A stretch of DNA of 43,171 nt, from the UHGV virus genome UHGV-1379488. One strand, given 5' to 3'. The position numbers and the translations under genes were made by a program. The stretch is from a virus. This document shows, piece by piece, positions 15,474 to 43,061 of the stretch. The notes beneath the pieces were generated by a model. The model worked only from the letters and a program-made list of their open reading frames with translations, had not been told where the DNA came from and ran no database searches. Within the stretch, counting starts at the first letter, position 1; the number at the start of each line of letters is the position of its first letter.

Positions 15474-15550
15474 TGAGCGGTGGTCACCCGCCAAGATGAT
15501 TCCACCGCTCCCGTAAATACGTCTGAGTATATTATACCTTACTCAGACGT
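15474..15550. promoter_or_regulatory. two perfect inverted repeats upstream of the internal recombinase gene
   Basis: GAGCGGTGG...CCACCGCTC (15474-15482 / 15501-15509) and CGTCTGAGTA...TACTCAGACG (15521-15530 / 15541-15550). Confidence 0.5.
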
Positions 15551-15581
15551 GAAAATCAATACGAATGAGGAGGATATAATT

Positions 15582-16628
15582 ATGAGTACACAGACAATAA
15601 AAGCTGAAATAATCAACAATGTACTGGTAGCAATGTCCTTATATATCATGGAGCAGCAGACTCTTACCATTCTTCAAAATGTAATGCAGCAGGAATTAGT
15701 AAGGGTGAATATGGAGGAAATAACTACACTTCCAGCAGAAAGAAAGGATGATATAAGCCAGAGTAATCAGTACATAATACAGTTATTCTTGATAAAAAAG
15801 CGTGATTTGGCACGAGGAACCAAAGAAAACTATCTTAATTCCATACGAAGATTGCTGACAGAGATAAGCACAAAATCACTGGACCAGATGGACACCACTG
15901 ATATTGATTGGTATTTATCGCGGTATGAAATCAGAAATGTGTCCAGTGGAGGAAAGAAAAATCAGCCCAGTACCTATAATAACGAGCGCCGTTTTCTGTC
16001 GGCATTCTTTACATGGATGCGCCTTGAAAAGCTTATTGCAGATAATCCGGTAGAGTCTATACCAGCAAAGAAAGTACCAATTAAACCGATTGATTACTAC
16101 AGTCCAGAAGAATCAGCAAGGTTAAGGGATGCGTGCAAAAATATCCGAGAGAGGGCATTGCTGGAGGTGTTGCGCAGTACGGGGGCCAGGATAGGGGAGA
16201 TTGCGGAAATAACTCTGAACCAGATAGACATGGGAACCGGCGATATTTGGATTCAGGGAGAGAAAAGCGGAAGATATCGGACTATCTATCTGGATGATGA
16301 TGCGCGGCATTATTATGGCCTGTATTTGGACAGCAGGAAAGATGATTGCCTATATATGTTCCCGCGCTCCAGAAAACCGTATGGAAAAATGACTACTTGT
16401 GGATTTCGGGCGATATTGAAAACCATAAGGAAAAGAGCCGGCTTAACATGTCGGGTATATCCGCATAAGTCACGAAAGACGCTGGGGATGAATCTAAAAA
16501 ACAGAGGAGTTGATATTGGGACCATACAGGAAATTATGGGACATGCTGACCCAGGAGTTACGGCACGTTATTATGCACAGTCTAACCCGCGTACTCTTCG
16601 TTCAATAAGGGAAAGGGTTAATGTGTAG
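15582..16628 (+). CDS. second tyrosine recombinase (XerC/D- or integrase-family) inside the prophage
   Basis: SAM-like N-domain (TKENYLNSIRRLL). Catalytic region RSTGARIGE...HKSRKT...MGHADPGVTARYYA. GAGGAGG RBS 8 nt before ATG. Confidence 0.8.
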   Translation: MSTQTIKAEIINNVLVAMSLYIMEQQTLTILQNVMQQELVRVNMEEITTLPAERKDDISQSNQYIIQLFLIKKRDLARGTKENYLNSIRRLLTEISTKSLDQMDTTDIDWYLSRYEIRNVSSGGKKNQPSTYNNERRFLSAFFTWMRLEKLIADNPVESIPAKKVPIKPIDYYSPEESARLRDACKNIRERALLEVLRSTGARIGEIAEITLNQIDMGTGDIWIQGEKSGRYRTIYLDDDARHYYGLYLDSRKDDCLYMFPRSRKPYGKMTTCGFRAILKTIRKRAGLTCRVYPHKSRKTLGMNLKNRGVDIGTIQEIMGHADPGVTARYYAQSNPRTLRSIRERVNV

Positions 16629-27503: not shown

Positions 27504-27674
27504 CATGGTAAAAAACGGTTGGGTATACTGCCCTATATGTAACAATAAGACCAGGACAAAAATAAGAAAAGATACAGAAGCCAAGAATTTACCTGTGTTT
27601 TGCCCAAAGTGCAGGAATACAACTGTTATGGATATATATGGAAGTAAAATAAAAAGAATGCAAAGCATTAAATA
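27504..27674 (+). CDS. 56-aa cysteine-rich KTR-type zinc ribbon protein
   Basis: YCPICNNKTRTKIRKD...FCPKCRN. Below the ORF-track size cutoff. Confidence 0.5.
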
Positions 27675-27871
27675 GAGCCAGTCGCCAGTCGCAGAGCCAT
27701 ACAGATTACAGCAATGTAGTTTGCATGGCTTTTTACTATATTTGAACCTCCCTCCTATAGCACATGTCCTTAACAGAAACAGGTCCTAGCTCATAGAGTA
27801 AACAGCCTGGAGGTTGAAAAGCGGACGCAATTTCCGGCATGTGCATCAAATTGAAAATATAAAATTGAAAA

Positions 27872-27944
27872 CGGGAAATAGCTCTGATAGCAGAGCAGCG
27901 GCCTTATAAGCCGTGTGTCAGGGGTTCAATTCCTCTTTTCCCGA
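27872..27944 (+). tRNA. tRNA-like gene, anticodon UAU (putative tRNA-Ile reading AUA), atypical D-loop lacking GG
   Basis: Perfect 7-bp acceptor (CGGGAAA/TTTCCCG), D-stem GCTC/GAGC, anticodon stem GCGGC/GCCGT with loop CTTATAA, T-arm AGGGG-TTCAATT-CCTCT. The D-loop TGATAGCA has no G18G19. Confidence 0.5.
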
Positions 27945-28096
27945 TGTGGCCGGGTCGCTCCCGGATGATGTGAGAGTACGCAGAACACCTCACAGAGAAT
28001 GACAATTCCTGCTGAAAACTGCCGGAGTACAGTAAAAGTTTGAATGGGCCATAGCTGAATGATGATGGTGTGATAATCTAAGCGGGAACTGCTTAA

Positions 28097-28185
28097 TGAG
28101 GCTTCGCCAAGCGGTTAAGGCACCGGGCTTTGACCCCGGCAGAGAAGGAACACTCTTTACGCTGGTTCGAATCCAGCAGCCTCAG
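28097..28185 (+). tRNA. tRNA-Gln(UUG)-like gene with a long (21-nt) variable arm
   Basis: Acceptor TGAGGCT/AGCCTCA with U1-A72 and G73. D-arm TCGCCAAGCGGTTAAGGCACCGG is nearly identical to bacterial tRNA-Gln. Anticodon loop CTTTGAC. T-arm GCTGG-TTCGAAT-CCAGC. Hairpin AGAG-AAGGAACA-CTCT inserted in the variable region. Confidence 0.6.
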
Positions 28186-28277
28186 TTTCGGACACGCCAA
28201 GTCCTACAAAATGGCAAACCGTTGGTGGACGGTTACACACCTACAAATAACCTAATAACGGAAAAGGAGAATCATCA

Positions 28278-28898
28278 ATGAAAACCGAAGAATTAAAGTC
28301 ACAGGGATTGACAGAGGAACAGATATCTTTTGTCATGGCTGAAAATGGGAAAGACCTTAAAAAGTTGCAGAAAGAAAATGACAATCTGACATCTGAACGG
28401 GATACCTGGAAAGAAAAAGCAGAGGCAGCAGAAACAACGTTGAAAGGATTTGAAGGGGTTGACCTGGAGACAATGCAGAAGGAACTGTCTGACTGGAAAC
28501 AGAAAGCTACAGAAGCCGAAAAAAACGCCCAGGCACAGCTTTATGAACGTGATTTCGCAGATGCGCTTAAGACAGAATTTGAAGGTATTAAATTTTCCAG
28601 CGACGCAGCTAAACGTGCAATTATGGCAGAAGTAAAAAAGGCCGATTTAAAGCTAAAAGATGGTAAAATCCTGGGGCTGAATGACCTTTTATCTCAAATG
28701 AAAGAAAAAGATGCTTCGGCATTTGTTGATGATGCGCAGCAGCAGGCACAGCAGAACATGGCGAGGTTCACGGCCCCGGCCGGCAAAAGCGGAAGCGCAG
28801 GAACATTAACAAAAGCGGATTGGAAGGGAATGAGCCTTGACGAGAGGATTGCGCTCAAGAACAGCAACCCGGAACTCTATAACAGTATGAAAGGATAA
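28278..28898 (+). CDS. scaffolding protein
   Basis: AAGGAG RBS. Coiled-coil, Glu/Lys/Gln-rich. Immediately upstream of the capsid gene. Confidence 0.65.
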   Translation: MKTEELKSQGLTEEQISFVMAENGKDLKKLQKENDNLTSERDTWKEKAEAAETTLKGFEGVDLETMQKELSDWKQKATEAEKNAQAQLYERDFADALKTEFEGIKFSSDAAKRAIMAEVKKADLKLKDGKILGLNDLLSQMKEKDASAFVDDAQQQAQQNMARFTAPAGKSGSAGTLTKADWKGMSLDERIALKNSNPELYNSMKG

Positions 28899-28904
28899 TG
28901 AATC

Positions 28905-29924
28905 ATGCCAAGAACAGGTACATTTGGAGGGTTTGCATTTGACCCGGAAGTATTTGCTGATTATATGTCGGAGCAGCCTACATGGAGCAATGCAATCATT
29001 GCATCCGGCATACTCCAGCAGGACAGCACCATCATGAACCTCATCGGTTCTGAGGGTAATGTTGCCACACTGCCATTCTATAAGGCGATGGACATTGCAG
29101 ACTATGAGCCGTACAACAATGATGGTAACACGAACAACACGCCGAAGGAGATTAGCGGCGGAAAGCAGACCGCCATGCTGATTCAGAGGATGATGGCATG
29201 GAAGGCACAGGACTTCACGAAGGAGCTTACCGGAGCGGACCCGATGCAGCATATCGCAAACAGCGTGTCCGACTATTATCGGCAGGTATGGGAGGCCGAA
29301 CTCATGAACATCGTGAATGCGGTCATGGGGCTGGATTCGATGAAAGACCATGTATACAACATCGCCCTTTCGGAGGGGAGCAGCGTACAGGATGCCAACA
29401 GGATTGACGAAACGACCATGATTTATGCGCAGCAGAAGGCCCTTGGGGACATGGCGAACGGTTTCGGAATCGCAATCATGAACTCACTCATATTTGCGAG
29501 ATACCAGGCAATGGGGCTTGTGAACTATAACAAGTATACCATCCAGAATGCCATGACATCGGAGGTCAACCTCCCGACAATCAACGGCCTCATCCCGGTA
29601 GTGTCTGACCGGTTCACGGTAGATACATCTGGCGATGTCCCGAAGTACATCACCACAATCGTGGGTCAGGGTTCCATCTTGACGGCAGAGAAGACCAATT
29701 ACAATGAGCCGTACTACACAGACTATGATGCGGAGACCAAGGCAGGTATCGAGAAACTGTATACTAAGGAAGGCCGTGTACTGCATCCGAACGGCTTCAA
29801 TCTCAAGGTTGCAAGCATTGCCGGAGAATCCCCGACCAAGACGGAACTTGGAGACAAGGCTAACTGGGAGCTTGCATACAAGGCAAAGAACATCCGTATC
29901 GGTCAGATTATTTCCAACGGATAA
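28905..29924 (+). CDS. major capsid protein
   Basis: 339 aa, follows the scaffold. Composition and position typical. Confidence 0.65.
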   Translation: MPRTGTFGGFAFDPEVFADYMSEQPTWSNAIIASGILQQDSTIMNLIGSEGNVATLPFYKAMDIADYEPYNNDGNTNNTPKEISGGKQTAMLIQRMMAWKAQDFTKELTGADPMQHIANSVSDYYRQVWEAELMNIVNAVMGLDSMKDHVYNIALSEGSSVQDANRIDETTMIYAQQKALGDMANGFGIAIMNSLIFARYQAMGLVNYNKYTIQNAMTSEVNLPTINGLIPVVSDRFTVDTSGDVPKYITTIVGQGSILTAEKTNYNEPYYTDYDAETKAGIEKLYTKEGRVLHPNGFNLKVASIAGESPTKTELGDKANWELAYKAKNIRIGQIISNG

Positions 29925-42192: not shown

Positions 42193-42318
42193 ATGTATAC
42201 AACACTAAAAAGATTATATAACAATGGTAAAGGTCCATTAACTATTGATGAGCTTAACCGGGCTGTATTACTTGGATGGATTACAGAGCAACAGAAGAAC
42301 AGCATAATTGGAGGATGA
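42193..42318 (+). CDS. XkdX-family small protein
   Basis: 41 aa: MYTTLKRLYNNGKGPLTIDELNRAVLLGWITEQQKNSIIGG. GGAGGTG RBS. Sits directly before the lysin. Confidence 0.5.
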   Translation: MYTTLKRLYNNGKGPLTIDELNRAVLLGWITEQQKNSIIGG

Positions 42319-42320
42319 TT

Positions 42321-43061
42321 ATGAGAGATATCACATTGTGTCATCCACGCTTACAGCTTTTAGCAGGTCAGTTGGTGGATGAATGTAATAAACAGGGATT
42401 AAAAATTAAGATAGGAGAGACACTGCGGACTGTAGCAGAGCAAGATGCTTTATATGCCCAGGGCAGGACTAAACCGGGCAACATTGTAACTAATGCGCCT
42501 GGTAGTAGTTATAGCTCCTATCATCAGTGGGGAACAGCTTTTGATATATTTCGTAATGACGGCACTGGTGCTTATAATGAAATTGGTGGATTTTTTAACC
42601 GTGTAGGTGCTATCGGTGTATCTTTGGGACTTGAATGGGGTGGAAATTGGAAGTCTCCTGTAGACAAGCCACATTTCCAATTGCCTGATTGGGGAAGTAG
42701 CACATCTGGAATCAAAAAACTATATCGCACCCCGGATGAATTTATGAAAACCTGGGTGACAGAGGGACGCACTGGCTGGATTAAGGATAATAACGGCTGG
42801 TGGTACCGCAGACCGGATGGAACTTACCCGGCTAATAAGTGGTGTATCATAAATCACCATTGGTACTTGTTTAATAAAGATGGATATGCTTGCACCAGCT
42901 GGCACCGATGGAATGGTAGCGTATGTGACCCGGATAACGGTTCGGGCGATTGGTATTATTTTGACCCTACACCAGACAGTCCATTGGAGGGGGCGTGCTG
43001 GCATAGTCAAGATAATGGGGCGCAGAATGTCTGGTATATTGAGGATGCTAATTCAATATAA
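42321..43061 (+). CDS. endolysin: peptidase M15 (VanY-like) domain + C-terminal cell-wall-binding repeats
   Basis: Zinc-ligand pattern SYHQWGTAFD...H. Repeats GWWYRRPDGTY, NHHWYLFNKDGY, GDWYYFDP. GGAGG RBS 7 nt before ATG. Confidence 0.8.
   Translation: MRDITLCHPRLQLLAGQLVDECNKQGLKIKIGETLRTVAEQDALYAQGRTKPGNIVTNAPGSSYSSYHQWGTAFDIFRNDGTGAYNEIGGFFNRVGAIGVSLGLEWGGNWKSPVDKPHFQLPDWGSSTSGIKKLYRTPDEFMKTWVTEGRTGWIKDNNGWWYRRPDGTYPANKWCIINHHWYLFNKDGYACTSWHRWNGSVCDPDNGSGDWYYFDPTPDSPLEGACWHSQDNGAQNVWYIEDANSI

Follow-up and report, generated by a model that had tools for sequence, protein, structure and literature searches.

Does a prophage of gut bacteria carry a working isoleucine tRNA that reads AUA through a genomically encoded UAU anticodon, and what does the aberrant D-loop of that tRNA mean for its function? 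The locus that raises these questions lies on the plus strand of the window, by which we mean the whole stretch of DNA analysed, the 43,171-nt virus genome UHGV-1379488. A preliminary description of its letters had reported a phage-encoded cloverleaf there and had left room for a pseudo-tRNA. The features concerned are:

27872-27944, plus strand: tRNA-Ile(UAU), 73 nt, called by ARAGORN and Rfam RF00005, with no encoded CCA and discriminator A73
27881-27896, plus strand: D-arm, with stem GCUC/GAGC and loop UGAUAGCA at 27885-27892
27905-27907, plus strand: anticodon TAT (UAU), within the loop CUUAUAA at 27903-27909

The tRNA gene and its fold

The tRNA finders, proposed at the outset as the first check, agree on a gene. 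ARAGORN calls a tRNA-Ile with anticodon tat at 27872-27944 on the plus strand, and Rfam RF00005 matches the same interval over its full length (model positions 1-71) with 60.0 bits against a gathering threshold of 29 and an E value of 1.2e-10 for the whole window. The complete cloverleaf of 7/4/5/5 bp with the loop CUUAUAA and the anticodon UAU, as first described, is borne out by the sequence, by both of these calls and by the minimum free energy (MFE) fold. Read from the sequence, the acceptor stem is CGGGAAA/UUUCCCG (7 bp), the D-stem GCUC/GAGC (4 bp, with the U12-A23 pair), the anticodon stem GCGGC/GCCGU (5 bp, including G27.U43) and the T-stem AGGGG/CCUCU (5 bp, including G51.U63), while the variable loop counts 5 nt. 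The T-loop UUCAAUU at 27925-27931 presents U54, U55, C56 and A58; the discriminator A stands at 27944 and CCA is not encoded after it. The MFE fold of the whole tRNA is this cloverleaf, at -29.5 kcal/mol (z = -3.7), a value equalled by none of 200 shuffles.

The gene thus shows the stems, the U33, the purine at position 37 and the U54 U55 C56 with A58 that are looked for in a cloverleaf, as well as the characters that identify a tRNA-Ile(UAU), namely UAU in a 7-nt loop, A37, A38, A73 and U12-A23, which are invariant or nearly so across 40 homologues. The marks of a pseudogene (truncation, broken stems, loss of the anticodon-loop format) are absent, the gene being full length with 21 of 21 pairs standard or G.U. 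By these sequence characters, the feature is a genuine phage-borne tRNA gene with a genomically encoded UAU anticodon. Two other identities were considered and rejected: a lysidine-dependent tRNA-Ile2(CAU), because position 34 is a T (27905) and not C34, and an attP or integration-site relic, because nothing of the tRNA is missing, about 27 kb separate it from the integrase, and the prophage junction adjoins the host ldh gene.

A family of UAU tRNAs in phages of Lachnospiraceae

In bacteria as a whole, tRNA-Ile genes with UAU are rare (Taniguchi 2013, PMC3575796), and the preliminary description had considered the present gene a rarity as well. This does not carry over to related phages and Lachnospiraceae. 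The exact 20-nt anticodon arm (GCGGCCTTATAAGCCGTGTG) is found in 111 IMG/VR contigs, each with a tRNA-Ile(tat) call, and in 22 GTDB species genomes, mostly from Lachnospiraceae and for the rest from related Clostridia/Bacillota MAGs; part of these GTDB carriers are prophage-like, with scaffold and capsid homologues close by. A blastn search with the region also matched the tRNA-Ile of two published phages, Ruminococcus gnavus phage phiRgPS_6 and Blautia phage Montmirail, both with TAT. Altogether, 67 other distinct tRNA-Ile(UAU) sequences from phages or Lachnospiraceae are homologous to that of the window. An alignment of 40 diverse homologues supports the cloverleaf, with compensatory changes at 14 of the 21 pairs, and in it the anticodon arm and the D-stem GCUC/GAGC are almost invariant. 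Judged by this homology, the gene belongs to a large family of tRNAs in phages and prophages of Lachnospiraceae.

The two published relatives (phiRgPS_6, MT980839, 36393-36466; Montmirail, ON453898, 18649-18721) are, like that of the window, phage-borne tRNA-Ile of 73-75 nt with TAT. The three share a near-identical anticodon arm, GC[G/A]GCCUUAUAAGC[C/U]GU, and D-stem, their phages have Lachnospiraceae hosts, and the tRNA lies upstream of late genes. They differ in the D-loop, which is canonical in phiRgPS_6 (AGUCGGUUA, 73.8 bits) and in Montmirail (AGGGGUUA, 64.6 bits) whereas the window has UGAUAGCA (60 bits), and in the neighbours of the tRNA, which follows a RinA-type activator gene in phiRgPS_6 and in Montmirail precedes the large terminase gene.

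Some members of the family have a different setting. Two Lachnospiraceae MAG contigs of 199 and 104 kb hold a tRNA-Ile(UAU) with the shared anticodon arm within arrays of 18-19 tRNAs (L118, 570-2963; L119, 34-2236). This suggests a chromosomal copy, so that some hosts may have a UAU tRNA-Ile of their own; the arrays may alternatively come from large phages. A 110-kb viral contig with a tRNA-Ile(UAU) also holds a long-armed CUA tRNA that ARAGORN labels 'Pyl' (L007, 2386-2472), which is likely an amber suppressor, a hint that this phage may recode a stop codon.

An unusual D-arm

A14 and the D-loop GG are near-universal among tRNAs generally. The D-loop UGAUAGCA is without any GG, as the preliminary description had remarked, and in this it was right. 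It had also taken both G18 and G19 to be lost, and this part does not stand: the alignment with 39 relatives and the closest allele numbers the loop U14 G15 A16 U17 A18 G19 C20 A21, so that G19, the partner of C56, is kept and only G18 is gone, replaced by A. The replacement of A14 by U, which the description had missed, is an additional anomaly, and positions 16 and 20 are changed too. Among the core and elbow residues U8, A14, G18, G19 and A21, which are typical of tRNAs though not strictly defining, U8, G19 and A21 are present and A14 and G18 are absent. The loop is aberrant, as suspected: of the 68 distinct tRNA-Ile(UAU) sequences collected, all but the window allele have GG, 39 of the 40 aligned family members keep A14, and the Rfam score of 60 bits is the lowest among the alleles compared (64.6-73.8 bits for the others). 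With the U8-A14 and G18-psi55 contacts gone, folding, processing or function on the ribosome may suffer.

D-loops without GG are found in other tRNAs as well. Seven of the 374 distinct tRNAs in the fetched loci (1.9%) have one, and since the six apart from the window tRNA are also phage tRNAs (Asp-GUC, Pro-UGG, Ile-GAU, two Tyr-GUA and a 'Ser'-ACU), such loops recur at about 2% among gut-phage tRNAs.

In the MFE fold, U14-A21 and G15-C20 are predicted to pair, extending the D-stem to 6 bp with the tetraloop AUAG, and this predicted fold is 4.5 kcal/mol more stable than that of a sister allele described below. A 6-bp stem with a 4-nt loop is also the D-arm of tRNA-Sec. The window tRNA resembles tRNA-Sec in this predicted geometry, in a loop whose last residue, a G, is available for C56 and in the lost 8-14 contact; it differs in lacking the UCA anticodon, the long variable arm and the extended acceptor/T helix. 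The likeness is a structural analogy and implies no membership.

The allele is not an assembly artefact, since the identical tRNA is found in at least five independent ENA gut assemblies, which match the window at 97.6-100% identity over 6.6 kb. These carriers were located by looking up contigs encoding the exact scaffold protein of the phage, and they also exclude the reading as a singleton allele. The scaffold protein appears in 218 blocks of the sequence collection, which indicates that the phage is widespread. A 22-mer specific to the variant had no match in JGI metagenomes or GTDB genomes. An 18-mer of the D-arm (TAGCTCTGATAGCAGAGC) had two matches in IMG/VR, which are not tRNAs; they were discarded because the 18-mer is nearly palindromic and is matched by chance. 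Between 27360 and 29924, all five carriers have the same sequence, which makes them uninformative on purifying selection.

The sister allele occurs in IMGVR_UViG_2531839010_000009 and in no fewer than 12 further contigs. Its acceptor stem, CGGGAAA/UUUCCCG, is that of the window tRNA, and its D-loop, AGUUGGUA, is canonical. The window allele differs from the sister allele at eight sites, four of which are in the D-loop (A14U, U16A, G18A and U20C), two form a compensatory pair (A29G/U41C), one creates a G.U pair (A51G) and one is a purine swap in the T-loop (G57A). Since most of the family has GCGGC/GCCGU, the compensatory change probably took place on the sister branch. A search of IMG/VR and metagenomes for intermediate D-loop alleles with the pattern GGGAAATAGCTC-N8-GAGCAGC found, apart from unrelated Trp/Ala tRNAs, nothing but the canonical sister allele. 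Simulations, made post hoc, gave a probability of 0.0065 that all 21 pairs are kept after eight random changes, of 0.004 that the 14-21 and 15-20 pairs both arise, and of 0.004 that at least four of eight hits fall within the 8-nt D-loop of the 73 positions; these values argue against simple decay.

Decay is nevertheless the alternative to be taken most seriously. It would have A14U and G18A cripple the L-shape of an impaired or decaying tRNA, a young gene that hitch-hikes in a successful prophage block and contributes little to translation. The solitary GG-less loop, the A14 kept by 39 of 40 relatives and the lowest Rfam score would all be understandable in such a gene; the carriers offer no variation with which to show selection, and relatives that do without the tRNA are common, as described in the next section. 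We regard this reading as unlikely, since not a single stem pair is broken, G19, C56, U54 and A58 are retained, the two new Watson-Crick pairs produced by the D-loop changes would be unexpected under random decay (P ~0.004), and the allele is present in at least five independent samples.

The same changes could instead be adaptive, a functional tRNA having been reshaped to escape a tRNA-cleaving toxin, a defence nuclease or a modification enzyme that recognises the D-loop or elbow, or to be stable without host modifications. They are clustered, with four of eight differences in 8 of 73 positions (P = 0.004), and coordinated, creating U14-A21 and G15-C20, and the predicted gain of 4.5 kcal/mol over the sister allele goes in the same direction. 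There is also a published precedent in phage tRNAs that escape tRNA-targeting defences via changes of the anticodon loop (PMC10264068). We still think it very unlikely, because it concerns one allele with neither independent recurrence nor intermediates in the searches made, no candidate host nuclease was identified, and the statistics are post hoc.

A two-tRNA cassette between two leader RNAs

The tRNA-Ile shares its immediate surroundings with a second tRNA, two structured RNA motifs and the first genes of a capsid operon:

27759-27845, plus strand: RAGATH-21 RNA motif (Rfam RF03097, 78.8 bits against a gathering threshold of 70.3)
27846-28185, plus strand: two-tRNA cassette of 340 nt, made of a 26-nt A/T-rich spacer, tRNA-Ile, a 152-nt spacer and tRNA-Gln
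28097-28185, plus strand: tRNA-Gln(UUG), 89 nt, with a long extra variable arm (ARAGORN; Rfam, 56.2 bits)
28190-28254, plus strand: GP20-b leader motif of the scaffold gene (Rfam RF03003, 39.4 bits against a gathering threshold of 36.2)
28278-28898, plus strand: phage scaffolding protein gene, the first gene downstream (PF06810, 101 bits; phrog_194)
28905-29924, plus strand: major head protein gene (phrog_247, E 1e-70)

The cassette sits exactly between RAGATH-21 and GP20-b. In three contigs that encode the identical scaffold protein (L262, L264 and L266), homology to the window ends at about 27844 and resumes at 28185/28186, which makes the 340 nt at 27846-28185 a sharp-edged insertion, or else a deletion elsewhere. 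These are three of the eight places shown with the identical scaffold protein, and in them RAGATH-21 and GP20-b are 5 nt apart. All 15 places read with scaffolds 88-98% identical have no tRNA either, and in 14 of these some 130 nt separate the RAGATH-21 core from the scaffold start downstream of it. The cassette is dispensable, most close relatives being without it. The contigs with the sister allele have the same layout of RAGATH-21, tRNA-Ile(UAU), long-arm tRNA-Gln(UUG), GP20-b and scaffold gene, and their cassette is 86.7% identical to that of the window; they differ in that additional spacer sets RAGATH-21 and the tRNA about 170 nt further apart. A permissive Rfam scan of the spacers found no other RNA family or ribozyme, and the predicted fold of the 152-nt spacer is no more stable than those of shuffled sequences.

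In the tRNA-less relatives, the GP20-b motif follows RAGATH-21 after 5 nt across a U-run, GCATGTGCG-TTTTT-GGACA (window 28190-28254 compared with L262, 2914-2977), a junction from which the two motifs may form one composite leader. Upstream of RAGATH-21 in the window, a Cys-rich ORF at 27505-27675 (56 aa, PF14205 Cys_rich_KTR in contig annotations) is followed at about 27698-27735, just before the motif, by an imperfect long hairpin with UUUUU, which a simple terminator scan did not call.

The arrangement recurs well beyond this phage. One to three tRNAs on the same strand lie within 400 nt downstream of the RAGATH-21 core in 79 of 124 loci, and every tRNA in the scanned RAGATH-21 windows is downstream and on the same strand. 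They are mainly CAU and Ile-UAU tRNAs, with Tyr, Asn, Thr, Ala, Val, Gln and Leu also represented. A scaffold homologue is found downstream on the same strand in 106 of the 110 loci with enough sequence (the window and L140-L258), at a variable distance of 100-1250 nt from RAGATH-21. The literature search found no mention of RAGATH-21, the main text of the 2017 discovery paper included. From these genomic positions, this orphan motif behaves like a 5' leader element conserved in scaffold/major-capsid operons of phages.

The tRNAs of this slot have peculiarities of their own. About 25 distinct 'tRNA-Met(cat)' downstream of RAGATH-21 (L174, L182, L212, L148, L228 and others) have the loop CGCAUAG, in which G33 replaces the universal U33, and their backbone UGGAAUG... 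is also used by tRNA-Ile(UAU) alleles. Other CAU tRNAs of the slot (GGACC..., CGGCUCAUAACCG) resemble lysidine-type tRNA-Ile2. As to the tRNA-Gln(UUG), its D-arm and anticodon loop are like those of ordinary Firmicute tRNA-Gln, to which an extra variable arm of 12-21 nt is added (a 5-bp stem in the window). The long-arm form is present in 33 of the 34 IMG/VR contigs that share its anticodon arm, and the family has at least five different, compensated acceptor stems. We know of no class-II-like tRNA-Gln, and a literature search found no paper on one.

The setting allows a reading in which the tRNA-shaped elements would chiefly provide cleavage sites for RNase P and RNase Z, parting RAGATH-21 from the GP20-b/scaffold mRNA, with aminoacylation irrelevant. 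In its favour are the exact placement of the cassette between two structured RNAs of the leader, the distance of 4 nt from the end of RAGATH-21 to the 5' end of the tRNA-Ile in four loci (L063, L077, L084 and L113), and the same-strand tRNAs that follow the motif in 79 of 124 loci. We nonetheless find it highly improbable, because tRNA-less relatives keep RAGATH-21 and GP20-b 5 nt apart and thus need no such signal there, conservation within the family is highest in the anticodon arm, which speaks for decoding, and the anticodons of the cassette match codons enriched in the phage.

Prophage, host and codon usage

The phage origin of the gene, assumed from the beginning, is secured by its context. 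The window has the gene content of a temperate siphovirus-type prophage, with an integrase at its left end, an ImmA/HTH pair, terminase, minor capsid protein 2, scaffold, major head protein and M15 endolysin, and it is found as a prophage within a 368-kb human-gut contig that is 100% identical to it over the 6.6 kb compared. Past the integrase, this contig continues into host genes (ldh, type II secretion, SpoU methylase and cysS). The scaffold protein is identical to the NCBI entry 'phage scaffolding protein [Enterocloster bolteae]' and relatives of the protein are named for E. clostridioformis and E. aldenensis. By these matches, the window is an Enterocloster prophage. The left-end integrase gene is on the minus strand at 179-1267, and a second tyrosine-recombinase gene (Phage_integrase family) lies mid-prophage at 15480-16628. 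For the ORFs 179-1267 and 42276-43061, the recorded gene calls are shorter (356 and 246 aa), so both probably start at a later codon.

The GC content is 0.41 in the window against 0.49-0.52 in the host flanks. Codons were counted in 56 confident ORFs of the phage (10,981 codons) and, for the host, in 18 flanking genes only (4,882 codons; L299, 13014-20681, and L341, 12686-20513). AUA had been called frequent in this phage and a comparison with the host suggested; it is indeed the commonest Ile codon of the phage, with 327 of 773 Ile codons (42.3%) against 27.6% in the 18 host genes (odds ratio 1.9, p = 4e-6), or 29.8 against 18.6 per 1000 codons. The bias for CAA is far stronger, with 152 of 422 Gln codons in the phage (36%) against 1 of 142 in the host flanks (p = 8e-22), the largest synonymous shift of all codons, AUA ranking 9th of 61 by absolute excess. 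In the scaffold and major head genes, AUA makes up only 3 of 33 Ile codons. Since AUA and CAA are both enriched, the two tRNAs of the cassette fit codon compensation, strikingly for Gln and moderately for Ile.

A proposed role in codon supply

Taken together, these data lead us to think that the gene probably encodes a working elongator tRNA-Ile with a remodelled D-arm that serves codon supply, a reading in which transcription, processing, charging and decoding are inferred. Lying between RAGATH-21 and GP20-b on the strand of the scaffold/major-capsid operon, the tRNA would be co-transcribed with the operon leader. Host RNase P and a 3' processing enzyme would release it, the host CCA-adding enzyme would supply the CCA and the host IleRS would charge it. 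In the remodelled D-arm, the predicted 6-bp stem and 4-nt loop would leave G19 free for the G19-C56 elbow pair. U34 would then read AUA, which would involve no dependence on TilS or lysidine, and supply would be raised for the commonest Ile codon of a phage living in a GC-richer host. The partner tRNA-Gln(UUG) would likewise supply CAA, which the host almost never uses.

Published work on B. subtilis tRNA and IleRS makes the function of a UAU tRNA feasible in Firmicutes. A suppressor of tilS deletion in B. subtilis, tRNA1-Ile(UAU), has an unmodified U34 and binds AUA strongly and AUG weakly (PMC3919564); the anticodon-loop fragment CCUUAUAAG of the window tRNA is the same 9-mer as in this suppressor. 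The IleRS of E. coli charges UAU poorly unless its W905 is changed to Arg, whereas those of B. subtilis and Lactobacillus carry Arg at this site and are thought to accept UAU, and some lactobacilli have a tRNA-Ile(TAT) alongside tilS (PMC3575796). The tRNA of the window shares its genomically encoded UAU with the B. subtilis suppressor and with the tRNA-Ile2(UAU) of Mycoplasma mobile, which read AUA without lysidine. Those two are cellular tRNAs, shown by experiment to have an unmodified U34 and to be charged, whereas that of the window is phage-borne; besides, M. mobile has no tilS and possesses an adapted IleRS and ribosome (PMC3575796, PMC3919564).

Implications for phages of Lachnospiraceae

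Considered by itself, the tRNA would be an ordinary case of a temperate phage supplying tRNAs for codons that it uses more than its host does. What it corrects is the idea of a genomic UAU as something exotic, UAU tRNA-Ile being routine cargo of Lachnospiraceae phages. More unusual than the tRNA-Ile itself, as far as these comparisons indicate, are the findings on the RAGATH-21/GP20-b leader and the family of long-armed tRNA-Gln. A bolder scenario, for which we see only a slim chance, would have the D-arm selected into a tRNA-Sec-like form that works without A14 and G18 and escapes, or becomes independent of, host factors, RAGATH-21/GP20-b being a landing pad at which gut phages exchange customised tRNAs, a class-II-like tRNA-Gln among them. 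For RAGATH-21, the association with the leader of the scaffold/capsid operon, where tRNAs have repeatedly been inserted, would give this orphan RNA a first genomic role. As for the tRNA-Ile(UAU) of the window, which lacks A14 and G18 and is otherwise intact, it provides a natural test of the tRNA core and would show how much of it an elongator can lose.
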